A DNA stretch of 64,000 bases from a bacterium. GTDB lineage: Bacteria > Patescibacteriota > Minisyncoccia > Phycocordibacterales > UBA2100. The notes under the pieces were generated by a model, which searched no databases, was not told the origin of the DNA, and was given only the letters and a program-made list of their open reading frames with translations. The translations under genes and the position numbers were made by a program. How positions within the stretch are numbered: position 1 is the first letter of the stretch; each line of letters starts with the position of its first letter. The stretch spans positions 8,052 to 72,051 of the forward strand of contig JAEUQT010000002.1 in the NCBI GenBank assembly GCA_016789445.1, given 5' to 3'. Of this stretch, positions 5,375-61,354 are shown piece after piece.

Positions 5375-6964
5375 ATGACGCAGGAAGATGCACTCTCCAT
5401 ACTCAAGCTTGGCGTGAATGTCTTCCTCACCGGTGAGCCGGGGGCGGGGAAGACGCATACGATCAACCAATACATCCACTGGCTGCGCGAGCGGGGAGTG
5501 GAGCCGGCAGTGACGGCTTCGACCGGTATTGCGGCGACGCATGTGGGAGGCATGACGATCCATAGCTGGAGCGGTATCGGCGTGAAGAAGAGATTGACCG
5601 ACTGGGATATCGAGAACATCCAAGCTCGGGAGAAGACCGCGAAGCGTATCTATGACGCAAAGATTCTCATCATCGACGAGATCTCCATGCTTGATGCGGA
5701 CACGCTTGAGAGCGTGGATGCGGTGCTGCGTGCGTTGCGGCAGCCGGTCATGCAGGAGAGTCGGCCGTTCGGCGGTCTCCAAGTCATCTTCGTGGGGGAC
5801 TTCTTCCAGCTGCCGCCGGTTTCCCGTGGGGAGAACGTACGCTTCGCCTTTGATTCAGATGCATGGAAAGCCGCGAATCCGGTCGTGTGCTACCTCTCCG
5901 AGCAGCACCGTCAGGAGGATGCAGCATTCCTGGATCTCTTGAATGCCGTGCGTCGCGGAGAGGTGGAAGACGTGCACTATGAATCACTTCGCTCCCGCAT
6001 GAAGCGAGTGAGCGAGAAAAAGAAAGTGACCCGACTGCATACGCATAATGCTGAGGCGGATCGCATCAATGACGAATCGCTCGCCGAGGTAGATGGAAAG
6101 ACCCATGTCTTCCATATGACGACGAAAGGTTCACGTACGCTCGTCGACGCACTGAAGCAGAATGCACTCTCGCCGGAGACGTTGGTACTTAAAGAAGGAG
6201 CGACGGTGATGTTCACGCGCAACAATTTCGATATGGGGTATGTGAACGGGACGCTCGGTGAAGTCGTGGGCTTCGCGAACAGTGGGTATCCGATCGTGAA
6301 GACTAAGAGGGGGGATCGTATCGAGGCGGTGCCGGGAGAGTGGAGTATCACCGACGGCTCGAAAATACTGGCGCAGATAAAACAGGTGCCGCTCCGTTTG
6401 GCGTGGGCGATCACGGTGCATAAATCGCAGGGGATGTCGCTGGATGCGGCGATCATCGATCTATCACAGGCGTTCGAGTTCGGGCAGGGATATGTCGCGC
6501 TCTCGCGCGTGCGTTCGCTCGACGGGCTTTTTCTTGAAGGATTTAACGAGCGAGCCTTGCAGCTGCACCCGCAGATCGTGCGCCAGGACGAACTCTTCCG
6601 TGCAAAATCCGACGCCGCACAGCGACGCATTTCGACCATACCTGATGAGGAGCGGGGAGTGTTGGAGAAGAACTTCCTACGTGCCATCGGCGCACGCGAG
6701 CCGGAACCCATAAAACCCAAGAAAGCTCTCGAAAAGGGAAAGCTCGAAAAAATACGTGAGAAGTTCCCGAATGCCGGTCGTCCGTGGACGAAAGATGATG
6801 ATGAGCGCCTGACGGAGCTCTTTGAAGCGGACACGCCCATGAAAACCATCGCCAAGGAATTCGGCCGCAAAGCGAGTGCTATTACGGCACGGCTCGTGAA
6901 GCTTGAGCTTATCGAAGACCCGTACTGGTCGAACAAAAACAAGACACCTCGCGCTGAAGAGTAG
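5375..6964 (+). CDS. PIF1/RecD-family ATP-dependent DNA helicase with a C-terminal HTH tail
   Basis: Walker A GEPGAGKT, helicase motifs (LIIDEISM, VGDFFQLPPV) and a RecD/PIF1-like C-terminal region (HKSQG). The last ~70 aa resemble a sigma-70 region-4-like HTH. Start is supported by an extended -10 (TGcTACACT) 6 nt upstream. Confidence 0.75.
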   Translation: MTQEDALSILKLGVNVFLTGEPGAGKTHTINQYIHWLRERGVEPAVTASTGIAATHVGGMTIHSWSGIGVKKRLTDWDIENIQAREKTAKRIYDAKILIIDEISMLDADTLESVDAVLRALRQPVMQESRPFGGLQVIFVGDFFQLPPVSRGENVRFAFDSDAWKAANPVVCYLSEQHRQEDAAFLDLLNAVRRGEVEDVHYESLRSRMKRVSEKKKVTRLHTHNAEADRINDESLAEVDGKTHVFHMTTKGSRTLVDALKQNALSPETLVLKEGATVMFTRNNFDMGYVNGTLGEVVGFANSGYPIVKTKRGDRIEAVPGEWSITDGSKILAQIKQVPLRLAWAITVHKSQGMSLDAAIIDLSQAFEFGQGYVALSRVRSLDGLFLEGFNERALQLHPQIVRQDELFRAKSDAAQRRISTIPDEERGVLEKNFLRAIGAREPEPIKPKKALEKGKLEKIREKFPNAGRPWTKDDDERLTELFEADTPMKTIAKEFGRKASAITARLVKLELIEDPYWSNKNKTPRAEE

Positions 6965-6984: not shown

Positions 6985-9900
6985 ATGGCTGAAAATCGGG
7001 GAAAATCAGAGACTGCCAAGCGGGAAGAAGAGGTTCTGGCCTTCTGGAAGGAGAACAAGACCTTCGAGCGCTCCTTGGATAAGAAGGCCCCGAAGGGGGA
7101 ATTCGTCTTCTACGACGGCCCGCCGTTTGCAACCGGATTGCCGCACCATGGCTCGCTTCTTTCCTCGATAATCAAGGACGTCATCCCGCGATACAAGACC
7201 ATGCGTGGCTACAAGGTCCGCCGCCGCTGGGGGTGGGACACGCACGGTCTCCCTATCGAATCGCTTGTCGAGAAAGAGCTCGGTCTCAAGACCAAGAAGG
7301 AGATCTTGGAGATCGGCATAGCGAAATTCAACGACGCGGCACGCTCGATGGTATTGAAGTACGTCCATGATTGGCAGCGATATATCGACCGCGTCGGCCG
7401 CTGGGTGGACTATGAGAACTCCTACAAGACGATGGACAATACGTACATCGGTAGCGTCTGGTGGGCACTCAAGGAGCTCGACACAAAGGGACTTCTCTAC
7501 GAAGGGAATAAGGTCCTCATGTACTGCACACATTGCGAGACGCCGCTTGCGAAAGCGGAGATCGCGATGGACAACACCTACAAGGATATAACCGAAGAGG
7601 CGATTACGGTGAAGTTCGAATTGAAAGAGGAATCAAAGACCTATTTCCTCGCATGGACCACGACGCCATGGACGTTGCCGGGTAATGTCGCGCTCGCGGT
7701 AGGGGCAGAGATCGAGTATGTGAAAGCGAAAGCGGGGGGTAGTGTCTACATACTTGCGAAAGAGCGCGCCGCATCGGTTCTTAAAGATGTCACCCACGAG
7801 ATCGTGGGGACACTGAAGGGAAGCGAGATCGTCGGAAAAGCATACAAGCCGGTTTTTGATGTGGCGTCATTGAAGACAGAAAAGTCACACAAAGTGCAGG
7901 CGGCGGATTTCGTCACCACTGAAGACGGTACGGGCATCGTGCATATCGCGCCGATGTACGGCGAGGACGACAACCAGCTCGGGCAGCGCGAGAAGCTGCC
8001 GATGGTACAGCTCCTTAATCCGAATGGTACGTACAACGATCTGGCACCATCGTTCCTGCATGGACTCTACCTGCGTGACGCGAACAAAGACATCAAGAAA
8101 GATCTCGAATCGCGCGGCCTCTTGTTTGCGCGCGCCAACCATACGCATTCCTATCCGCACTGCTGGCGATGCGGCACACCGCTCATCTATAACGCGGTTT
8201 CTTCCTGGTTCATCAATATCCAGAAGATAAAAAGCCGACTCATCGAGGCGAACCAGGAGATCAACTGGGTTCCGGAGCACTTGAAGAACGGTCGCTTCGG
8301 GAAGATTCTGGAAACCGCACCGGATTGGACGATCTCACGCAACCGCTTCTGGGCATCACCGCTTCCGATCTGGAAATCGAAAGAGGGGAAGGTGATGGTT
8401 ATAGGCTCCCTGGGTGAATTGAAAGAAAAGGCGAAGAAGAGCGGCAACACGTACTTTGTCATGCGCCATGGCGAAGCGGAATCCAATGTCACGAATACGC
8501 TGAGCTCGAAGAAGGATGCGCCTGTCCATCTCACCGAGAAGGGGAAGGAGGATGTGCGTGAGTCTGCAAAGAATCTTGGAAAGAAAATCGATCTCATCGT
8601 CGCGTCACCGTTCGTGCGTACGCGTGAATCGGCTGAGATCGCCGCTGAGGGGCTCGGGCTCAAGAAGAGCGACATCGTCTTCGATGATCGTCTTGGCGAA
8701 TACGATCTTGGGTCTCAAGACGGCATCTCGCTCGAAGAGTGGCATCTCGAATATCCGGCAAATCTAGAGCGTTTCGAGAAAGGTCCGGAAGGTGGCGAGA
8801 ATGACTCTCAGGTGCGTCGACGCATGGGCGCTGTCCTCTGGGAACTGGAAGAGAAGTATCGAGGAAAGAACATCCTCATCGTCTCGCATGGCACGCCGCT
8901 CTGGCTCTTAAAGGGTGCTGCTAAGGGCTTCACGAAAGAAGAGATCGTCGCGACCTACAAGACCGACTATCCGAGTAAGGGAAAGATTACCGAACTCCCG
9001 TTCTCTCCCATTCCGGTGAATGCTGATTTCGAACTCGACCTCCATCGTCCGTACACGGATTCCATTGTGCTCCTCGACGAGGCCGGCACTGAATATCAGC
9101 GCATTCCGGAAGTCATCGACTGCTGGGTGGAATCGGGCTCTATGCCATTCGCCGAATATCACTATCCGTTCGAGAATAAGGCGGAATTCGAGAAGCGAAG
9201 CCCGGGCGATTTCATTGCGGAATACATCGCACAGACGCGCACGTGGTTCTACTACCTGCATGCGATGAGTATCGCGCTCTTTGACCATGTCGCGTTCAAG
9301 AACGTGGTCACGACCGGGACCATCGTCGCGGCCGACGGGGAGAAGATCTCGAAATCGAAGAAGAACTACACCGATCCCTTGGAGCTTATCGACACCTATG
9401 GCGCGGACGCGATGCGCCTCTACCTTATGGGCTCTCCCGTCATGCAGGCGGAGGATCTGCGCTTCCGCGATGAGGATGTGCGTGATGCACATAACCGCAT
9501 CATCGGTATCCTCTGGAACAGCTTCAAATTCTTCGATCTCTATCAGAAGGAGTACGACGGCAAGGCAGAGGGGCGAAAGAGCGAGCATGTGCTCGATCGC
9601 TGGATCTTCGCGCTTCTCGACGAAGTGACTGAAGAGGTGACGGCGGCTATGGAGAGGTATGACACTCCGCGCGCGGCACGAGCGATCCGTGGCTTCGTCG
9701 ACGAATACTCGACGTGGTACGTGCGCCGTTCACGCGAGCGCGTGAAAAGCGAATGGCATGAACGTCAGTTCGCGCTTGCGACGCAACGGGAAGTCTTGCT
9801 CACATTCTCGAAACTCATCGCACCCATCATGCCCTTTTTGGCGGATGCGATCTGGCGCAACATCGAGGATGGCGGCAGCGTGCATCTCGAAGAGTGGCCG

Positions 9901-10425
9901 CAGGTGAAGCGTGGGTTCTTCGCGCGACTCTTCGCTAAGCCGGATGCCATCCTTGCGGAAATGAAGGATGTGCGTTCAATCGTCACCAAGGCGCTTGAGG
10001 CGCGCGACAAGGCGGGCATCAAGGTGCGTCAGCCACTCAATCTCCTGGAGATCGGTTCGAATATCTCAAAAGAACTGCGCGACATCATCCGTGACGAAGT
10101 AAATGTGAAGCAGGTTATGCCTGCGAAAGATCTTGCGGCAGGGGAGGTGCGATTGGATACGGTCATCACACCGGAACTGCAGCGCGAAGGTGAAGTGCGC
10201 GAATTGCTGCGCGCGGTACAGGGGCTCCGCAAGGAAGGAGGACTCAATCCGGGGGATGCTGCAACGATATTGGTCTCGGCTACTGATGAAGCATGCATGC
10301 TCATTGAATCTGCAAAGGACGAACTGGATCGCATCGCGAGTGTGAAGGGAGTCGTATTCACCGACAATGTCGAAGGTGTGAGCGTGAAGCTTGGTAGCGG
10401 GAGCGCCAACATCCGCCTCGGCTAG
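6985..10425 (+). CDS. ileS: Isoleucine--tRNA ligase (type 2), with an inserted histidine-phosphatase (PGAM-like) domain
   Basis: HIGH-region PHHGSLL, WTISRNRFWASPLPIW, LDLHRPY, KMSKS as KISKSKKN, and a C-terminal anticodon-binding region; 1146 aa. Nucleotides ~8395-9040 encode a complete RHGE...SHG histidine-phosphatase fold inserted between the PIPIW and DLHRP segments. Confidence 0.9.
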   Translation: MAENRGKSETAKREEEVLAFWKENKTFERSLDKKAPKGEFVFYDGPPFATGLPHHGSLLSSIIKDVIPRYKTMRGYKVRRRWGWDTHGLPIESLVEKELGLKTKKEILEIGIAKFNDAARSMVLKYVHDWQRYIDRVGRWVDYENSYKTMDNTYIGSVWWALKELDTKGLLYEGNKVLMYCTHCETPLAKAEIAMDNTYKDITEEAITVKFELKEESKTYFLAWTTTPWTLPGNVALAVGAEIEYVKAKAGGSVYILAKERAASVLKDVTHEIVGTLKGSEIVGKAYKPVFDVASLKTEKSHKVQAADFVTTEDGTGIVHIAPMYGEDDNQLGQREKLPMVQLLNPNGTYNDLAPSFLHGLYLRDANKDIKKDLESRGLLFARANHTHSYPHCWRCGTPLIYNAVSSWFINIQKIKSRLIEANQEINWVPEHLKNGRFGKILETAPDWTISRNRFWASPLPIWKSKEGKVMVIGSLGELKEKAKKSGNTYFVMRHGEAESNVTNTLSSKKDAPVHLTEKGKEDVRESAKNLGKKIDLIVASPFVRTRESAEIAAEGLGLKKSDIVFDDRLGEYDLGSQDGISLEEWHLEYPANLERFEKGPEGGENDSQVRRRMGAVLWELEEKYRGKNILIVSHGTPLWLLKGAAKGFTKEEIVATYKTDYPSKGKITELPFSPIPVNADFELDLHRPYTDSIVLLDEAGTEYQRIPEVIDCWVESGSMPFAEYHYPFENKAEFEKRSPGDFIAEYIAQTRTWFYYLHAMSIALFDHVAFKNVVTTGTIVAADGEKISKSKKNYTDPLELIDTYGADAMRLYLMGSPVMQAEDLRFRDEDVRDAHNRIIGILWNSFKFFDLYQKEYDGKAEGRKSEHVLDRWIFALLDEVTEEVTAAMERYDTPRAARAIRGFVDEYSTWYVRRSRERVKSEWHERQFALATQREVLLTFSKLIAPIMPFLADAIWRNIEDGGSVHLEEWPQVKRGFFARLFAKPDAILAEMKDVRSIVTKALEARDKAGIKVRQPLNLLEIGSNISKELRDIIRDEVNVKQVMPAKDLAAGEVRLDTVITPELQREGEVRELLRAVQGLRKEGGLNPGDAATILVSATDEACMLIESAKDELDRIASVKGVVFTDNVEGVSVKLGSGSANIRLG

Positions 10426-19571: not shown

Positions 19572-20639
19572 TTATTCTTCTTCACTTCCGGAGCCACGGG
19601 ACGGAGTGCCGCCGTTCTCGAGATTCTTGCGGATATCTTTGAGGAGGGAATTGAGTACGGGCTTATTGTCGCGCAGGAAGGTGCGGGCTGCGTCGTAGCC
19701 ACGACCGAGCTTGTGCTCGCCGTACTGATAGGAGCCGCCGGATGATTTCTCCAATACGCCCATCTTCTCGCCGAGCGCCAAGGCTTCGCCTTCGCGGGAG
19801 ATGCCTTCGCCGTACATCATGTCGAACTCTGTCTGACGGAAGGGGGCTGCCACCTTGTTCTTTACGATCTTCACGCGATGGCGGCCGCCCATGACTTCGT
19901 CGCCCTTCTTGATCTGTGCGATGCGACGGATATCGATACGGACCGACGTGTAGAACTTGAGTGCTTTGCCGCCCGGAGTGGTTTCCGGATTGCCGAACAT
20001 GACGCCGATCTGCATGCGGATCTGGTTGATGAAGATGACGACGGTCTTCGTCTTGGAGACGATTGCGGTGAGTTTGCGCAGCGCCTGTGACATGAGGCGA
20101 GCTTGCTTGCCGACATGCTGCGCGCCCATATCGCCCTCGATTTCGTCTTTTGGAGTGAGGGCTGCGACCGAGTCGACGACGATGACGTCGATCTTGCCGC
20201 TGCGCACGAGCGATTCCGTGATTTCTAGTGCTTGTTCGCCGGTGTCCGGCTGCGAGACGAGGAGAGAATTGATGTCGACGCCGAGCTTCTTGGCGTATTC
20301 AGGATCGAGCGCATGCTCTGCGTCGATGAATGCGCACACGCCGCCTTTTCGTTGTGCTTCGGCTATTGCATGGAGGGAGAGCGTGGTCTTACCGGAGCTT
20401 TCAGGTCCGAAGATCTCGACGATGCGTCCACGGGGGAGTCCGCCGATGCCGAGCGCCCAATCGATACCGATAGAACCGGTAGAGATCGCGTTCACGTCTA
20501 CCTTCGGTGTGTCGCCGAGCTTCATGATCGCTTCGTCGCCGAACTTTGTCTTGATCTCAGATAATGCGCGGTCGATGTCTTTGTCGGTGCCGGTACCCAC
20601 TTCTTTCGGAGGAGCTTTCTCTTTCTTTTTGACTGCCAT
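19572..20639 (-). CDS. recA: Recombinase RecA
   Basis: Walker [11 protein letters not shown]1/L2 loop motifs, IFINQ.R. Start placed at MAVKKKEK (ATG at 20639), 6 nt after a TACATT -10-like hexamer. The tabulated ORF extends further upstream without support. Confidence 0.9.
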
Positions 20640-20691
20640 ACGGGAAATGTATCGGTTAATGGGTAAGTATGAATGAAGTATATCGTGCCGC

Positions 20692-21111
20692 TTAGAGAGG
20701 GGTGGAGGGGGTCGAAGTGGCTGGGGATGAGGTTGCGTGGGAAGCACCTGGCACATAAGAGCCCTCAGGCGCACGGTAGACGATATCGAGGGTCGCCGAG
20801 GTGGTGCGACCGCGCGCATCGCGCGCCTCCAGGATGATGCGGTTCGAGCCGTCGGCGAGCAGGTACGGTTCATCGAACTCACCGTCTTCCGTCACGCTGA
20901 TGGTGTTTCCATTCAGGCGGAGTTCGGAGATGCGCTCAACATGACCCTTGATTGAGGTGAAGGCGGTATCCGAAGAAGTGGCCGTGTGTTCAAGCTCGAT
21001 CGAGGGTCCATACACGAGGCCTTGTGCTTCGTAGAGTGCGTAGCCTCCCGCGAGGAGGAAGAAAAGCGTGAGAAGGAGGCGGATGAAGCGGGAATCACGT
21101 GAAGGGCGCAT
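20692..21111 (-). CDS. Hypothetical exported/membrane-anchored protein with an Ig-like beta domain
   Basis: 139 aa with an N-terminal TM/signal helix ([18 protein letters not shown]), a beta-rich middle and an S/T/P-rich tail. Its 5-prime end overlaps the ftsK stop by a few bases. Confidence 0.5.
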
Positions 21112-30124: not shown

Positions 30125-30305
30125 TTACTCCTGTGTTTTACCTCGAGCACGGTACCACGCCCCTCCTTTACAGACAACCGCTGGCGTAGTAGAGTCTTCC
30201 CCAAGGGCCAGAGACAGCGGGCACACAGGTAAGTCCCGCCGAGGTCGAACTATCCTTCTTCGAAGGAGAACTCGGGCCCATTTATAAGGGTCTTTTTGTT
30301 TGGAA
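30125..30305 (+). promoter_or_regulatory. Structured 5-prime leader upstream of rplJ (candidate L10 leader autoregulatory element)
   Basis: A ~180-nt non-coding GC-rich region with long-range complementarity (GGGCCAGAG...CTCGGGCCC) directly upstream of rplJ. Many bacteria have an L10(L12)4-binding leader at this position. Not verified against a covariance model. Confidence 0.4.
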
Positions 30306-30309
30306 ACAT

Positions 30310-30819
30310 ATGGCACAGACGAAGCAGCAGAAAGTAGAGATCGTCTCGAAGCTCGAGACTGCGTTCAAGAACGCAGCCACGTCGGTTCTCATCCACTTCA
30401 AGGGGGTGAACATCGGCGAGGAGACCGCGATGCGCCGTGAACTCCGTCAGGCAGGTGTTACGTACACCGTGGCGAAGAAGACGCTCATCAAGCGTGCGCT
30501 CGCATCGCTCGGTCACGAAACCGAGGGCGTGCCGATGGAAGGGGAAGTAGCGCTTGCGTACGGCGGCAACGACGACGCGACCGCACCAGCCCGCCTCATC
30601 CATGAATTCGGAAAGAAGTACCAGACGGCGGATAAGAAGCCAAAGCTTCACATCCTCGGCGGTATCTTCGAAGGTAAGCTTGTCGACCAGGCGATGATGC
30701 GAGAGATCGCAACCATCCCGTCGATGGCAGGCCTGCGTGGCATGTTCGCGAACGTGATCAACAGCCCGATCCAGCGTTTCGCAATCGCGATGGCGGAAGT
30801 GGCGAAGACGAAGAATTAA
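30310..30819 (+). CDS. rplJ: 50S ribosomal protein L10
   Basis: Conserved L10 N-terminal and central motifs, followed by rplL. Confidence 0.9.
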   Translation: MAQTKQQKVEIVSKLETAFKNAATSVLIHFKGVNIGEETAMRRELRQAGVTYTVAKKTLIKRALASLGHETEGVPMEGEVALAYGGNDDATAPARLIHEFGKKYQTADKKPKLHILGGIFEGKLVDQAMMREIATIPSMAGLRGMFANVINSPIQRFAIAMAEVAKTKN

Positions 30820-30837: not shown

Positions 30838-31194
30838 ATGACACAGGAACAGATCATCGAAGCAGTAGAGAAGATGACCGTCCTCGAGCTCAACACGCTC
30901 GTGAAGGCGATCGAAGAGAAGTGGGGCGTTTCTGCAACTGCAGTTGCAGCAGCAGGTCCGGCAGCGGCAGCGGGCGAGGAGAAGACCTCGTTCACCGTCG
31001 AACTCACCGCAGCAGGCGACCAGAAGGTTGCAGTCATCAAGGTAGTGAAGGAAGCACTCAACCTCGGTCTCGCGGAAGCGAAGGCATTCGTGGACGGTGC
31101 TCCGAAGGTTCTCAAGGAGGACATGAAGAAGGAGGAAGCCGACGAGCTCAAGACGAAGCTCGAAGGAGCAGGAGCAAAAGTTACCATCAAGTAA
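30838..31194 (+). CDS. rplL: 50S ribosomal protein L7/L12
   Basis: N-terminal dimerisation helix, Ala/Gly/Pro hinge, and C-terminal domain (VIK.V...L.L.EAK..VDGAPK.LKE...KEEA.ELK.KLE.AGAKV). Confidence 0.9.
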
Positions 31195-31273
31195 CTTTTG
31201 CGAGTGCTCGGGAAGAGTCGGGTGAGCCGTGGGTTAAGGAGCGGCGTAAAGAGTTTCCCGTCTCGGAGAGCAG

Positions 31274-31303
31274 AAAAAGATCCGCACCAGCGGATCTTTT
31301 TCG
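31274..31303 (+). terminator. Rho-independent terminator (AAAAAGATCCGC-acca-GCGGATCTTTTTCG)
   Basis: Perfect stem plus T-tract, 80 nt after the rplL stop. Confidence 0.6.
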
Positions 31304-31307
31304 TTGA

Positions 31308-31370
31308 GAACCGAGGGTTCTCAAGGAGGAGCTTGCGACGACTGTTGGTGCGAAGGTCACGATCAAGTAA
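31308..31370 (+). pseudogene. Diverged duplicate of the rplL 3-prime end (encodes ...PRVLKEELATTVGAKVTIK*)
   Basis: GGTTCTCAAGGAGGA is identical to rplL positions ~31098-31112. The terminal GAKVTIK-stop is encoded with five synonymous codon differences from the real rplL end. It is followed by its own terminator. Confidence 0.5.
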
Positions 31371-31391
31371 TCTCTCGTATCAAAAAGAGAA

Positions 31392-31423
31392 GCGCCCGAC
31401 GATGTGTCGGGCGCTTTTCGTTT
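31392..31423. terminator. Bidirectional terminator (GCGCCCGAC-gatgt-GTCGGGCGCTTTTCGTTT)
   Basis: Perfect 9-bp stem. It ends the rplL-remnant unit on the + strand and abuts the stop of the minus-strand receiver-like gene. Confidence 0.6.
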
Positions 31424-31826
31424 ACGCTGCTTTCTGGTGATCGCGTGAAAGCTCTTGAAAGATCAGCCCTGCTTGCTGGCATATGTTCAATCGCAGCTCT
31501 TGCTCCGTATCACCCGATGCGAAGAAATTACAGCCTGCGACCTGACAGGCGAAGGCCCCCTCATTCGTTGCATAGGCTTCAAACACGATCATCGGGTTTC
31601 CGAATTCTCTGCGGATCTTTCGGACAAGTCGCGCTGTTTCTCGTCCGTTCCCGCAAAAATTCGCATCCACTACGATGATGTCGGTATCAAGCATCTCGGT
31701 CCATCGCCAGCGAAGATTTAAAGGCGATCTCGACCTCTCGACATGGTCGATCCCGAAACGTCTCAAATTCTCCGAAAGCATGTTCCCGAATGAGCCTTCG
31801 GGTGCAAGCAAAAGAACTTTTTCCAC
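31422..31826 (-). CDS. Stand-alone atypical (pseudo-)receiver domain protein
   Basis: REC-like beta-alpha fold with the phospho-acceptor Asp (IIVVDANF), but it lacks the N-terminal acidic pair (LLLAPEG) and the conserved Thr/Lys. Start reassigned to a GTG at 31826, preceded by AAGGAG at 7-nt spacing. The tabulated ORF extends to an ATG at 31889. Confidence 0.5.
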   Translation of the reverse strand: MEKVLLLAPEGSFGNMLSENLRRFGIDHVERSRSPLNLRWRWTEMLDTDIIVVDANFCGNGRETARLVRKIRREFGNPMIVFEAYATNEGAFACQVAGCNFFASGDTEQELRLNICQQAGLIFQELSRDHQKAA

Positions 31827-31941
31827 CGCGTATCTCCTTTCTGAAGAGTGCGAGGATCGAACAATACAACGATAATGCGGGTCAAGCAAGGAGATTTTTT
31901 ACCAGAAAATCACCTCATGCTACAATCCGCTTACTACGGAT

Positions 31942-32544
31942 ATGACGAAAGCTCACGATTTCTTGGAGGCAGTACTAGGGAACCCGTCCCGAGCCAAGAT
32001 ACTGAGACTCTTCGTCCTCCACCCGAAAGAGACGTTCACGCCGGCCGAGATCGCGCGCCGCGCGAAAGTGGGTGCGCACAGCGTGAACACGGAAGTGGAA
32101 TCGCTCAAGAAGACCGGACTCCTGAAGGAAGAGAAAGGACAGGGTTCGACTGCACGTAAGAAGATCTCATACTATTCGCTCAATCCTGAGTGCAAGCAGC
32201 TGAACGCCGTCACCACGTTCGTGCACGCGGTTTCTCCCGCGCAGTACAACGACGTCGAAGCTGCGCTTCGTCGCGCAGGACGTATGTCGGTGGTGCTCCT
32301 TTCTGGTGTGTTCACGGGAGACATCACACGTCCGGCGGATCTCATCATCGTCGCGGATACTTTAAACGACGAGCGCTTGGAGAAGGCAGTGAAATCATTC
32401 GAATCGAAATACGGGAGGGAGGTGCGCTACGCCGTTTTCTCGACGCCGGAATTCCGTTATCGCCTCACGATCAAGGATAAGATCTTGCGCGATATCCTGG
32501 ACTACCCGCATCGGGTGCTCATCAACCGCACCAACTACCTCTAG
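31942..32544 (+). CDS. Winged-HTH plus nucleotidyltransferase-fold-like protein (hypothetical regulator)
   Basis: N-terminal wHTH (SRAKILRLFVLHPKETFTPAEIARRAKVGAHSVNTEVESLKKTGLL). The C-terminal region has a minimal-nucleotidyltransferase-like GS...D.D signature (LLSGVFTGDITRPADLIIVAD). Divergent from the pseudo-receiver gene. Confidence 0.5.
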   Translation: MTKAHDFLEAVLGNPSRAKILRLFVLHPKETFTPAEIARRAKVGAHSVNTEVESLKKTGLLKEEKGQGSTARKKISYYSLNPECKQLNAVTTFVHAVSPAQYNDVEAALRRAGRMSVVLLSGVFTGDITRPADLIIVADTLNDERLEKAVKSFESKYGREVRYAVFSTPEFRYRLTIKDKILRDILDYPHRVLINRTNYL

Positions 32545-33592: not shown

Positions 33593-33944
33593 CCGCCTTA
33601 CATATGGGACTTAAGCAGATGCAAAAGAAGTGGCGTGGATAGCCAGATTTTTTCTGTCCTTCCGATTGCCGCTTCCGAGCGGCTTTTTTTGTACCCGTGT
33701 GTAGCTCGTTGACAACTGAAGAACGACATCAAATTCAGCGTAGAGCCGCAAGGCTTTGCGTTGAGAAAGAAAACGAAAGAATCAAATGTTCTTATTTCTG
33801 GTTACAAGTCTCCAGAAATAAGATCAGGAACCTTCTTCCGAAAGGAAGGAGGCTTGTAGGACACCAAAACCTTCGTATCCTCTGCACTAGACATGCATGA
33901 TGCGAAGTAAAAGAACACGCGGTTCCCAGAATTCTCATAACGAG

Positions 33945-36895
<2,951 letters not shown>

Positions 36896-37170
36896 CGTTA
36901 GGGAATTGTGGGTATCCGTGTTCGCACGGTGTCCAACGCAAGTCTTTCGTTTTTGATGGTGTCGTTCTTCAGTTGCCAAAGGGCATGATCTTTTAGATAT
37001 TCGTGGATTTCAGAGAGGAAAGTCGCATGACTTCTCCTCGGCGGGGGTGAGGGATAGGCTCACACATTGGACATCTGTCCACTTCGGTCGGGCTAAGTTC
37101 CTCTATGAAGGGCAATGCTCTCTCCCCGCTCTTCTCTGAAATCCATGAATACTTAGACTATTGAAGATTC

Positions 37171-37281
37171 TGTGTTGGTGGTTTGGCGAAGGGGGTACAC
37201 CCGTTCTCATTCCGAACACGGCAGTTAAGCCCTTCTGCGCCGATGGTAGTCGAAAGGCGAGAGTAGGTCGCCGCCAACACA
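37171..37281 (+). rRNA. rrf: 5S ribosomal RNA
   Basis: CCCGTTCTCATTCCGAACACGGCAGTTAAGCCC...GCCGATGGTAGT, with terminal helix TGTGTTGGTGG/CCGCCAACACA. Confidence 0.85.
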
Positions 37282-47306: not shown

Positions 47307-47554
47307 GCCTCTACTTGTCTCACTCTACTGATCTAGAGCTTCGTGAGATCGAGGATCCCACGAGGCCTTCTTTGGCGTGGGGTAGACCTTTGAAAACTGA
47401 AGAGAGAAACAAACGATCTCCGACCCGCAAGGGTTCGGGGAACACACACATAAGCAAGAACACAAGAAAGTAAAAGAAAGCATTGGAACAAAAGATGTAC
47501 ATTCTTTTGTTCCGTCCAACCTAATCAAGATAGGAGTAGAAATACTCCGTCTTT

Positions 47555-49015
47555 AACTGAGAGTTTGATCCTAGCTCAGGGTGAATGCTGGCGACGTGGA
47601 TAGGGCATGCAAGTCAAGGGGACCGCAAGGTAACCGGCAGACGAGATAGTAACGCGTAGGAACGTACCCAGAAGTCGGGCACAGCTCGCCGAAAGGCGGG
47701 GTAATTCCCGATGGTCTCGCAAGAGTAAAGATTTATCGCTTCTGGAGCGGCCTGCGTAATATCAGCTAGTTGGTGAGGTAATGGCTCACCAAGGCTATGA
47801 CGTTTAGGGGAGCTGAGAGGCTGACCCCCATCGATGGAATTGAGATACGGTCCATACTCCTACGGGAGGCTGCAGTCGAGAATATTCGACAATGGGCGAA
47901 AGCCTGATCGAGCGACGTCGCGTGGTGGATGAAGTCCTTCGGGACGTAAACATCTTTTATGAGGGAGGAAGTTATTGACGTTACCTCATGAATAAGGGGC
48001 TCCAAACTCTGTGCCAGCAGGAGCGGTAATACAGAGGCCCCAAGCATTACCCGGAATCATTGGGCGTAAAGGGTGCGTAGGTGGTCATATTAGTCGAATG
48101 TTAAATCCCGGGGCTTAACTCCGGAATCGCGTTCGAAACGGTACGACTCGAGAGCGTGAGAGGTGAATGGAACTCATGGTGTAGGGGTGAAATCCGTTGA
48201 TATCATGGGGAACACCGAAAGCGAAAGCAATTCACTGGCACGTTTCTGACACTCAAGCACGAAAGCGTGGGTAGCGAACGGGATTAGATACCCCGGTAGT
48301 CCACGCCCTAAACGATGATAACTGGATTTAGGGAGTATCGACCCTCTCTGAGTCGAAGCTAACGCGTTAAGTTATCCGCCTGGGTAGTACGGTCGCAAGA
48401 CTAAAACTCAAAGGAATAGACGGGGGCTTGCACAAGTGGTGGAGCGTGTGGCTTAATTCGTCGCTAAGCGAAGAACCTTACCAAGGTTAGAAATCCTACT
48501 GCACGCCTTCCGAAAGGAAGGAAGCCTTCGAGGGTGTAGGACAGGTGATGCATGGCTGTCGTCAGTTCGTGGTTTGAATCGTTCCCTTCAGTGGGGTAAC
48601 GAACGCAACCCTCGTTGCCTGTTATATTTGTCAGGCGAGACTGCCCCCTCACGGGGGAGGAAGGTGGGGATGACGCCAAGTCAGCATGTCCCTCTGATAT
48701 CTTGGGCTGCACACGCGCTACAATGGCTACTACAGCGGGGCGCGACGGGGTAACCCTGAGCAAATCCTTCAAAAGTAGCCTCAGTTCGGATTGAGGTCTG
48801 CAACCCGACCTCATGAAGCTGGAATCACTAGTAATCGCGGGTCAGCCACACCGCGGTGAATACGTTCTCAAGCCTTGTACTCACCGCCCGTCAAGTCAGG
48901 GGAGTTGGGAGTGCCCGAAGCGCATCCTTGCGATGCTTCAAGGCAAACTCAATGACAAAGACTAAGTCGTAACAAGGCACGGGTAGCGGAAGCTGCTCGT
49001 GGATTCATTCTAAAC
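47555..49015 (+). rRNA. rrs: 16S ribosomal RNA (unlinked from 23S-5S), with a non-canonical 3-prime tail
   Basis: GAGTTTGATCCTAGCTCAG start, CTCCTACGGGAGGCTGCAG, GTGCCAGCAGGAGCGGTAATAC, GGATTAGATACCCCGGTAGTCC, AAACTCAAAGGAATAGACGGGGG and GTCGTAACAAGG. The 3-prime end reads GGATTCATTCTAAACAACCTTCTCTT instead of GGATCACCTCCTTA, so the exact 3-prime boundary is uncertain. Confidence 0.85.
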
Positions 49016-53886: not shown

Positions 53887-54019
53887 CGCGCACAACCCCG
53901 ACCCCCGCTTAAGAAACCAAAGGTTTCTTACGTCGCTCCGCTCCTATCTTCCTGACACGGGGTCGTGCGTCGCCAGATCGCCGCTCGCCCGATGAATATG
54001 ACCTATAATTTCACATAAT

Positions 54020-59584: not shown

Positions 59585-61354
59585 ATGCAACCCATCAGGG
59601 ATAGTGGGGCTGATGATGAGCGCCGCATCACGTACTTTGCGACGACCCATACCCGCGGCAAGCGGGAGATGTTCGGCATACGTGCGGTAGATCGCGGTAA
59701 GCACATGTACGTGATCGGGAAAACCGGTATGGGGAAGTCCACCATGCTCGAGAACATGGCGATCCAGGATATCCAGAACGGGGAAGGTATCGCGTATATC
59801 GATCCGCATGGTTCGACGGCGGAGAAACTTTTGGATTTCGTTCCGCATGAACGAATCAAGGATGTGCTCTACTTCGCGCCGTTCGATACCGACTATCCAG
59901 TGGGCTTTAATGTCATGGAAGATGTTGGCTACGACAAGCGTCACCTCGTCGTCTCAGGCCTCATGGGTGCCTTCAAGCGCATCTGGGTCGATGCTTGGTC
60001 GGCACGTATGGAATACATCCTCCAGAACGTCCTCCTCGCGCTTCTCGAGTATCCCGGCTCCACACTCCTCGATGTGAACCGCATGCTCACGAACAAACCC
60101 TTCCGTGCGGCGGTCATCGAAAAGATCACCGACCCCATCGTGAAAGCGTTCTGGACAGAGGAGTTCGCAACCTACACCGATCGCTATACCCAGGAAGCGA
60201 CGCCAGCGATCCAGAACAAGGTGGGTCAATTCGTAGCGAATCCTTTGATCCGCAATATCGTGGGCCAGCCGAAATCGACATTCAACCTGCGTCAGATGAT
60301 GGACGAAAAGAAGATTTTCATCGTGAATCTCTCCAAGGGGCGCATGGGTGAATCGAATGCCGCGCTCTTAGGCTCGATGCTCACGGTGAAGATCTATCTC
60401 GCGGCGATGTCGCGTGCCGATGAGCCGCCCGCACGCATGGCGAAGCTGCCACGCTGCTATTTCTATGTCGATGAGTTCCAGTCGATGATGAATGAGGCGT
60501 TCGCCGACATCCTTTCGGAATCGCGCAAATACAAGCTCGCGCTCACCCTCGCAAACCAGTACATCGAGCAGATGGAGGAGAATGTACGCAATGCGGTCTT
60601 CGGCAACGTGGGAACACTCGTCACGTTCCGCGTGGGACCTTTCGATGCGGAGGTCTTGAAGACGGTTTTCGAACCGACGTTCGAAGCGGAGGATCTCGTC
60701 GGCCTCGGTCTCGGTCAGATCTACCTCACGCTCATGATCGATGGCGTGGGATCGGCGCCATTCTCAGCCGAGACGGTTCCGCCTATCGAGGCGCCGCATG
60801 TTTCGTATCGCGAGGACGTCATTCATCACACGCGCAGCGCACACGCGAAGCACCGTTCGGAAGTCGAGGCCATCATCGGGAAGCGGCAAGAAGAATTTGC
60901 GCCGCCTCCGAAAGCACCACCGCGAGAGCGCGATCGATATCCGCGGGAGAACAATTCTGGTGCAAACGGTAATCACCAGCGAGCACCGCAGCCGCGACGA
61001 GAAGATCGTCCTCGTGACGAGGCTCCGCGCGAACCGCGACCGCAGCAACCACAGCCAGCGCCCGTGGCAGAACAGCGCTCGGCTCTGCGAGATGCGATCG
61101 CATCGGTCCAGAAGAAGCCGGAGGAGGTACCAAGGAGCGACGTTCGTTCGCCAGCAGAAATCATGCGTTCGCGCCTCGCCAAGAAAATGGCACGACATGC
61201 GGGCGATGCACCTCCGGAATTCCCGCGCGCACCGCAGGCTCAGCCACAGCCCGTGCGGCCTCCACGAGTTGAATCTGAGGCGCCCCGAACTCCGCGAGCC
61301 AAGCGCGATGAAATCGCAACCGAAGACCTCAAGAAGATATTGAGCGGGGACTAG
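59585..61354 (+). CDS. P-loop NTPase of the FtsK/HerA/TraD-TrwB (type IV coupling-protein-like, DUF87-like) superfamily with a ~160-aa Pro/Arg/Glu-rich disordered C-terminal tail
   Basis: Walker A VIGKTGMGKST, IDPHGS (resembling the DPKG motif of coupling proteins), Walker B YFYVDEFQ, KYKLALTLANQ. There are no TM segments. The C-terminus from ~aa 430 is low-complexity P/R/E/Q-rich. A TATACT hexamer lies 7 nt upstream of the ATG. Confidence 0.55.
   Translation: MQPIRDSGADDERRITYFATTHTRGKREMFGIRAVDRGKHMYVIGKTGMGKSTMLENMAIQDIQNGEGIAYIDPHGSTAEKLLDFVPHERIKDVLYFAPFDTDYPVGFNVMEDVGYDKRHLVVSGLMGAFKRIWVDAWSARMEYILQNVLLALLEYPGSTLLDVNRMLTNKPFRAAVIEKITDPIVKAFWTEEFATYTDRYTQEATPAIQNKVGQFVANPLIRNIVGQPKSTFNLRQMMDEKKIFIVNLSKGRMGESNAALLGSMLTVKIYLAAMSRADEPPARMAKLPRCYFYVDEFQSMMNEAFADILSESRKYKLALTLANQYIEQMEENVRNAVFGNVGTLVTFRVGPFDAEVLKTVFEPTFEAEDLVGLGLGQIYLTLMIDGVGSAPFSAETVPPIEAPHVSYREDVIHHTRSAHAKHRSEVEAIIGKRQEEFAPPPKAPPRERDRYPRENNSGANGNHQRAPQPRREDRPRDEAPREPRPQQPQPAPVAEQRSALRDAIASVQKKPEEVPRSDVRSPAEIMRSRLAKKMARHAGDAPPEFPRAPQAQPQPVRPPRVESEAPRTPRAKRDEIATEDLKKILSGD

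Follow-up and report, generated by a model that had tools for sequence, protein, structure and literature searches.

In the 64-kb stretch of DNA analysed here (the window from here on), a complete rplL gene is followed by what looks like a second copy of its own end, which raises the question of where this copy came from and what lies between the two. The gene codes for ribosomal protein L7/L12 (30838-31194, plus strand, 118 aa) and has the Pfam Ribosomal_L12_N domain together with a full-length Ribosomal_L12 C-terminal domain (1-67/67); the upstream rplJ (30310-30819) is intact as well. The second copy, or echo, consists of two blocks located 3' of rplL that repeat its 3' part with order and frame kept. 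The first block (31311-31330 against rplL 31102-31121) is identical at 19 of 20 positions, and includes the 15 identical bases that an initial annotation of this DNA had noticed at the start of the second segment. The second block (31347-31370 against 31171-31194) is identical at 19 of 24 positions, ATCAAGTAA being the end of both copies; all five differences are synonymous and either copy reads GAKVTIK-stop, exactly as had been described. The initial annotation interpreted this as the scar of a recombination that replaced the rplJL region by that of a related genome and left the resident gene tail behind, each copy having its own terminator. As we shall argue, part of this interpretation holds, and part has to be replaced by something rather different.

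The echo is a real repeat. Its alignment scored 28 against a maximum of 24 among 100 shuffles, and block 1 scored 18 against at most 14 among 2000 shuffles, i.e., the match exceeds chance, which is the outcome the initial annotation had anticipated when it named a statistical test beforehand. Besides, it is present in all ten independent assemblies whose L12 protein is identical (L001-L010; one is a JGI metagenome and the other nine are assemblies of sequencing runs), which rules out an assembly artefact, including the collapsed or chimeric assembly that had been raised as an objection. Among these ten sister strains the echo drifts, with a V-to-A change in two of them and, in four, a 5-nt indel between the two blocks (just upstream of the resident tail) that breaks the frame, whereas the working tail is invariant. 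Hence, the echo is not under the constraint of a translated sequence.

The initial annotation had also remarked that rpoBC do not follow rplL. The genes are indeed absent, but relatives with and without the echo share this order, which is the normal one for the clade and is unrelated to the insertion event. The conserved downstream neighbour is a gene with an HTH_20 domain (31942-32544, plus strand), found after rplL in relatives with and without the echo. As for the surroundings, the order of the rRNA genes is unusual, and they are not linked (33942-37279 and 47553-49014), with the 23S and 5S first and the 16S ca. 10 kb further on, protein-coding genes between 5S and 16S, and tRNA-Ile after the 16S. 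Upstream of rplJ (30190-30307, plus strand) there is a weak match to the L10 leader (25 bits, E 0.13, gathering score 44) with a conserved AGACAGC...GCCGAGGU motif. A class I aminoacyl-tRNA synthetase of the Ile/Leu/Met/Val type (6985-10425, plus strand, 1146 aa) has a His_Phos_1 histidine-phosphatase domain (residues 491-653) inside its catalytic domain.

Resident and incoming ends of rplL

We have compared alleles with and without the core, the conserved part of the DNA between the two tails, at the rplL site only, in relatives retrieved by a protein search with the window L12. The core is lacking in L145, L139, L141, and L143, and present in L001-L010, L137, L138, and L142. The empty relative L145 has an L12 that is 99% identical to that of the window and an rplL body identical at 316 of 327 nt (96.6%), and reads ...AAGCTCGAAGG TGCTGGTGCGAAGGTTACGATCAAGTAA TCTCGCTTACGAACT, followed by the terminator and then by the HTH gene. 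Its tail matches the window echo at 25 of 27 positions, versus 24 of 30 for the window working tail. All six differences from the working tail are at third codon positions, and the 26 nt that precede the tail are identical. Moreover, the spacer and terminator after the L145 tail are those found after the last tail copy in the window's sister strains. The echo (31343-31370, plus strand), which is equally close (25/27) to the native tail of the empty L139, is therefore the displaced resident tail, in agreement with the initial annotation. What does not agree is the extent of the foreign DNA, which within rplL amounts to only 28 nt and not to the rplJL region.

The opposite situation is illustrated by L142, in which the rplL body is only 86.5% identical to that of the window, yet the core is present and the working tail is identical at 29 of 30 positions. 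Similar discrepancies appear among the relatives themselves. Between L142 and L015 the unit (tail, spacer and core, see below) is 93.8% identical and the gene body 81.3%, and between L142 and L137 the figures are 88.7 and 93.3%. Judged by these alignments, the relationships of the units disagree with those of their hosts, which shows that the tail moves together with the element, independently of the host gene. For the 5' half of the echo there is only a weak trend to travel with the element.

The same kind of divergence is found well beyond rplL. Over 24 pairs of gene ends and echoes (rplL, fusA, typA, hppA, and one unnamed gene) there were 131 synonymous codon differences and only 8 that were not. 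This means that both copies have been working gene ends, and the idea of a working tail that comes from another allele, in a related genome, holds for the whole family of elements. There are also pairs of tails that are identical or nearly so (31/31 in L122, 32/33 in L133, 18/18 in both L056 and L075), a pattern that suggests recent events or gene conversion. A further variant is seen in L140 (1858-1871), which has no core but has the element-type spacer CTTTTGCGAGTGCT directly before the native terminator; judging from the sequence, the donor lineage may have looked like this ancestrally, or core and echo may have been deleted secondarily.

The echo and the spacer that follows it are predicted to form a hairpin (31345-31383, plus strand), and similar hairpins of tail plus spacer are predicted at the empty sites of other species. 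Next comes a terminator-like hairpin (31383-31423) common to rplL, on the plus strand, and to a minus-strand ORF; the terminator scan called it on the minus strand only, and its plus-strand tail is TTTTCGTTT. The ORF (31422-31889, minus strand, 155 aa, no Pfam match) occupies a slot that varies between strains, the window sharing the stretch with L001 and L002 but not with L003-L010. Indeed, the whole slot from the last rplL tail to the HTH gene is hypervariable (31371-31941 in the window, 3534-3675 in L003, 1858-2575 in L137, 844-1422 in L143). In L137 and L143 it contains small ORFs that are similar to each other by eye and unlike the 155-aa ORF of the window. In eight sister strains an 82-nt mini-insertion is located right after the echo; it brings ACGATCAAGTRA to three copies and repeats its flanks in inverted orientation. 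In another relative, L018 (3357-4020), ca. 600 nt with a small ORF separate a truncated first echo from a full second one, with nearly the same terminator after each of the two.

The inserted unit and its occurrence at other loci

Comparison with the empty L145 places the inserted unit at 31167-31342 (plus strand, 176 nt), composed of a replacement tail, a spacer, and the core. Its left edge is uncertain by up to 26 nt leftward, the stretch that is identical in the window and L145. The replacement tail (31167-31194, plus strand) provides the last nine codons of rplL plus the stop, and pairs with the 15-nt spacer that follows. The resulting hairpin, P0 (31166-31209, plus strand; arms 31166-31184 and 31191-31209), has the stop codon in its 3' arm, and its arms are 84% complementary, the bases after the rplL stop being the reverse complement of the last codons. 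This 3' arm is better suited to its own working tail than to those of other species (permutation p<1e-4), and the spacer has a mean score of 12.3 to the working tail versus 6.3 to the echo, as expected if tail and spacer were inherited together. The left edge of the unit is, within one base, the outer base of P0.

After P0 there follow, in this order, a purine-rich linker, P1, the motif TCGGAGAGCAG, P2, P3, GGAGGAG, and CGACGAC. Hairpin P1 (31219-31260, plus strand) reads GGGAAAC-nnnn-GTTTCCC elsewhere, the ten sister strains included, and has a 28-nt loop in the window, with ca. 21-28 extra bases (31223-31250). Neither these bases nor a G-to-A change in the linker is shared by any of the ten sister strains, and the window copy of the element may thus be decaying. 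Hairpin P2 (31273-31302, plus strand, a perfect stem of 13 bp) is what had been taken for the terminator of the first rplL copy (31274-31303). The terminator scan made no call there because the T-run is paired (with an A-run), and the unpaired U-run that should follow the stem-loop of an intrinsic terminator is missing. P2 also varies in length and sequence between copies, being very short or missing in several, and its homologues have no T-run where the hairpin exists at all. Of the two terminators originally described only the second (31383-31423) is terminator-like. P3 (31304-31324, plus strand; TTGAGAACC-GAG-GGTTCTCAA) has compensatory changes at four of its nine pairs over 54 copies, and shares sequence with the older rplL-derived block within the core (31311-31330, plus strand), that is, block 1 of the echo. 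A short variable hairpin between P3 and the terminal CGAC completes a row of five, and the edges of the unit coincide with the outer bases of this row.

The conserved 3' end of the unit is CGACGAC (31336-31342, plus strand), and in most elements with a displaced copy that copy is immediately preceded by CGAC(G). At the left junction GAAGG meets AGCAGGAG and at the right one CGACGAC meets TGTTGGTG; compared with each other, the two junctions have no identical crossover core in common. A free circular or tandem form of the unit would imply a junction in which CGACGAC is joined to AGCAGGAGC. There is no ORF proper to the unit, the overlapping ones being frame-shifted and coming from rplL or running into the flank.

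A covariance model (R1) built from 54 cores matched the window at 31207-31328 (plus strand, 58.7 bits, E 2.7e-12), a region that we have called core A. This was the one convincing match in the 64 kb, a scarcity that counts against the reading as an insertion element put forward below. The next best (53906-53955, minus strand) is marginal (16.6 bits, E 0.021) and consists mainly of a P3-like hairpin, AAGAAACC-TTT-GGTTTCTT. In the helices P1 and P3, 99.8% of the cells are paired and six pairs have double-sided changes, which none of 500 shuffles equalled; the covariation test counted 44 cells with double-sided changes. In 52 of the 54 copies folding is better for the element strand than for its complement, and the G-U pairs are 97 versus 9, a predicted bias that points to an element functioning as a single strand of that polarity. 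With compensatory helices on one strand, core A belongs with the structured single-stranded nucleic acids; the folding z-score of the window region is -7.4 versus shuffled sequence. Part of the conservation of the core could come from an RNA function beneficial to the host rather than from mobility.

Among 80 related species (Paceibacterota/Kaiserbacteria-type genomes, L12 identity 67-87%) ten carry core A after rplL, and some echo at the rplL end is found in ca. 20-25 of them, often with other, smaller hairpin cores in between. One of these, core B, is conserved as well; it contains ...GGCCGGAGC...CGAGGYGRGGTCGCGCA, an AGCA-loop hairpin and ATGYGTGAC, and lies between the rplL end and the echo; it was seen after rplL in L024, L037, L044, and L075, and nested in L016 and L088. 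Further mini-cores occupy the same position in L028, L046, L056, L062, and L079. In the examples of core B and mini-cores that we examined a hairpin arm ending in GAC stands immediately before the echo.

A pattern search retrieved 46 metagenome loci with core A, many of them away from rplL; the pattern fixed several core positions, so the invariance of these is partly built in. The sites are the 3' ends of rplL, rpsI, and hppA (membrane pyrophosphatase), positions just after tRNA genes and, with the core on the opposite strand, the 5' ends of lepA, typA, and fusA, the names of the protein-coding genes being the best matches of fragments of 70-80 aa that score below the full-length cut-offs of the models. 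R1 scores on the dispersed loci ranged from E 1e-14 to 1e-21. The usual layout is an intact gene end, a complementary segment, the core, CGAC, and a second copy of the host sequence that spans from the insertion point to just past the stop or start codon (9-91 nt). The 5' side of some copies is a plain hairpin only, and some stand directly after a simple stem-loop resembling a terminator stem. L097 and L128 are two loci on a single contig whose cores are near-identical, with no difference even in the variable P2, and whose P0 hairpins are unrelated. The targets resemble one another: in the three paralogous GTPases identical G1-motif codons are hit, and the tRNA end GCCGGGAGCA is similar to GCCGGAGCA of rplL.

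Spread, origin, and rival explanations

What we have here is a discrete insertion that carries a spare gene end, is shared horizontally and has a conserved structure on one strand. Taking everything together, we think it probable that 31167-31342 is one copy of a small non-coding insertion element, core A, and that the echo is the resident tail that it displaced. The element would have interrupted rplL 28 nt before its end, bringing its own version of these 28 nt, so that L12 is still made full-length, and would have pushed the resident tail and its native spacer downstream, where they now form the echo. Spread to the same site in other genomes would require nothing more than DNA uptake and homologous recombination by RecA, the homology arms being the conserved gene, to the left, and the displaced tail with spacer and terminator, to the right. 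The unit would land 28 nt before the rplL end of the recipient, whose own tail would remain as the echo, and this would account for the synonymous-only differences between the two tails. A RecA is encoded in the window (19572-20882, minus strand); its domain starts at residue 101 of the longest ORF, which has a GTG start, and there is either an N-terminal extension of 100 residues or a later true start. Two other genes of the window, a type IV secretion coupling-protein-like gene (TrwB/T4SS-DNA_transf, 59585-61354, plus strand) and a PIF1-like helicase (5375-6964, plus strand), might bear on DNA transfer in this genome.

Several other readings have to be weighed against an insertion element. 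The plain recombination scar of the initial annotation, in which an incoming rplJL allele was joined imprecisely and junk was left between two tails, would explain why the echo matches the native tail of empty relatives and why the two tails differ at synonymous sites only. However, the DNA between the tails is a conserved and covarying structure with over 50 further loci, tRNA and GTPase genes among them, and the foreign tract is 28 nt of rplL and not the rplJL region; with a conserved hairpin element bracketed by the tails at many unrelated loci, we regard a bare scar as very unlikely. Slightly harder still to believe is that the 3' UTR of rplL contains a regulatory RNA of its own, the spacer of which would pair with either tail or echo, sense the translation of the last codons, and control read-through or mRNA stability. 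The region is certainly strongly structured, hairpins of tail and spacer are predicted at several empty sites too, and the spacer co-varies with the working tail at synonymous positions. Against this, the same spacer is a poor fit to the echo, which within the species has drifted as far as an amino-acid change and a broken frame, L145 lacks the whole arrangement with an L12 that is 99% identical, and the same core is found beside tRNAs and, oppositely oriented, at the starts of GTPase genes.

The duplication of a gene end by a copy that the incoming element supplies is a hallmark of large integrase-driven elements, such as e14 in icd and Rac in ttcA (PMC6379469), and there are islands, too, with their integration site inside the 5' end of dusA (PMC4482086). 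The unit could accordingly be the relic of a prophage or island in the 3' end of rplL that lost its interior and kept the attachment arms. We consider this improbable, given that among about 60 copies there is not one with a long interior or an integrase, that the junctions (AGCAGGAG versus TGTTGGTG) share no identical crossover core, that one core with many targets does not fit a fixed integrase specificity, and that no match to the core was found in 2.9 million viral contigs, a result that also speaks against a phage or plasmid origin. Somewhat less improbable, though we still doubt it, is that no transposition machinery was ever involved, and that template-switch duplications at hairpin-rich gene ends had transformation and homologous recombination as their only means of spread. 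This would fit with the rplL end, where small cores of several unrelated types, nested insertions, and inverted flank copies all occur, with the origin of part of core A from an old rplL fragment that pairs with its inverted copy, and with the RecA encoded in the window. Yet near-identical cores, variable hairpin included, at unrelated loci of one contig (L097 and L128), and an rplL-derived segment carried to tRNA, GTPase, rpsI, and hppA sites indicate that some copy-and-paste step is needed.

We also tried and rejected a number of more specific candidates. An alternative-pairing attenuator is contradicted by the misfit of spacer and echo, the drift of the echo in strains, and the presence of the core at unrelated loci. 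At rplL the inverted segment does not look like a guide made afresh across the insertion point, as P0 coincides with the unit within one base and travels with it, though at other sites it may be one. A guide RNA of the TnpB/IscB type (scaffold plus flanking guide) would be self-targeting in view of the identical tail pairs of L122, L056, and L075. The window differences (A/T, A/G, A/G, T/C, C/G, all synonymous) are not adenine-specific, for which reason we rejected a diversity-generating retroelement. A G-quadruplex in the GGGAAGGGGTCGGG linker is not conserved across all subtypes, and the motifs of a CsrA-type sponge or Shine-Dalgarno decoy (repeated GGA, AAGGAGG) are absent from many copies. 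The ends AGCAGG... and ...GCGACGAC are not inverted repeats and the repeats (9-91 nt) usually differ, unlike in a MITE, and the long duplicated target of most copies examined does not fit an IS200/IS605-derived element. Known ribozymes and introns gave no Rfam match. More generally, Rfam 15 had no match to the element in searches with the window region (E<=10) and with eight canonical copies (E<=1), the chance-level overlaps of the window region (rsmX, E 5.6; OrzO-P, E 2.8) lying far below the gathering scores. Literature searches by topic and by sequence strings found no description of the element. What counts against our own reading is that no transposase, integrase, or reverse transcriptase was found among the ca. 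20 proteins scanned of some 55 in the window.

If core A is an insertion element, where did it come from? The block CCGAGGGTTCTCAAGGAGGA, which is the 3' arm of P3 plus linker, is conserved at every type of site, and even as found in a copy at a tRNA (L092) it is 19/20 identical to rplL of the window's clade, at codons for PKVLKED. For this reason core A seems to have arisen at an rplL end and to have moved later to other targets, and P3 seems, from its sequence, to be an old echo paired with its own inverted copy. As to how new sites are reached, our best guess is that the intermediate is a single strand of RNA or DNA in folded form, on which an enzyme encoded elsewhere would act, as suggested by the edges of the unit being outer hairpin bases and by the G-U pairs on one strand. 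Targets would be chosen through similarity to the flanking repeat. In a model, target-primed reverse transcription with snap-back would reproduce the layout at the sites with identical repeats. We put forward as a possibility, and a tentative one, that core A and its smaller relatives represent a new class of protein-less homing element, in which a strand of four or five hairpins would be copied into terminal codons and tRNAs together with a recoded gene end that would let essential genes survive, with targeting by base pairing or homology. Were this true, nature would have its own version of a "cut and rescue" gene drive, with RNA or ssDNA and an enzyme as the agents.

Comparison with known systems

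The genomes of Patescibacteria are tiny. A non-coding unit of 120-180 nt sits in them at the ends of some of the most conserved genes, i.e., those for L12, S9, EF-G, EF4, TypA, the pyrophosphatase, and tRNAs, and since each copy brings a spare gene end the host genes are not destroyed. Insertion is made harmless by another route than splicing, an intein, or ribosome bypassing. The two tails record a donor and a recipient allele, and can thus serve as a marker of gene flow for uncultivated lineages. Core A also defines a conserved structured nucleic acid without a described family, and in annotation it accounts for short "pseudogene tails" and apparent double terminators after ribosomal genes.

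Several classes of bacterial repeats (MITEs, REP/REPIN, Correia, RUP, and the IS200/IS605-derived PATEs) are short, non-coding, hairpin-forming, and multi-copy, and are usually located just outside genes. Core A shares these properties. However, it has neither terminal inverted repeats nor a short target duplication of fixed length, and it goes inside coding ends, which is compensated by a long copy of the gene end with a sequence unlike the resident one. Terminator hairpins are neighbours of the insertion sites of group IIC introns and of IS elements, and core A, in a similar way, is always found directly after a stem-loop (P0); unlike them, it has no intron ribozyme domains (no Rfam match) and no protein, and measures only ca. 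120-180 nt. The bypass element of T4 gene 60 and the mitochondrial "byp" elements are mobile insertions in coding regions that, like core A, leave the protein intact without RNA splicing. They do so through ribosome hopping, whereas here there is a duplicated gene end with its own stop codon.

The closest parallels in terms of logic are prophages and islands. [quoted passage not shown] These are elements of kilobases, with an integrase, one fixed target, and an identical crossover core, whereas the unit described here has 176 nt, no ORF, and no cargo, and core A is found at seven or more kinds of target, in contrast to elements of the integrase type. Like the dusA islands, it has its target inside a gene end, and like e14 and Rac it inserts in the terminal codons, supplies the working end, and displaces the resident one. 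By analogy, then, the logic of core A is that of e14 in icd.
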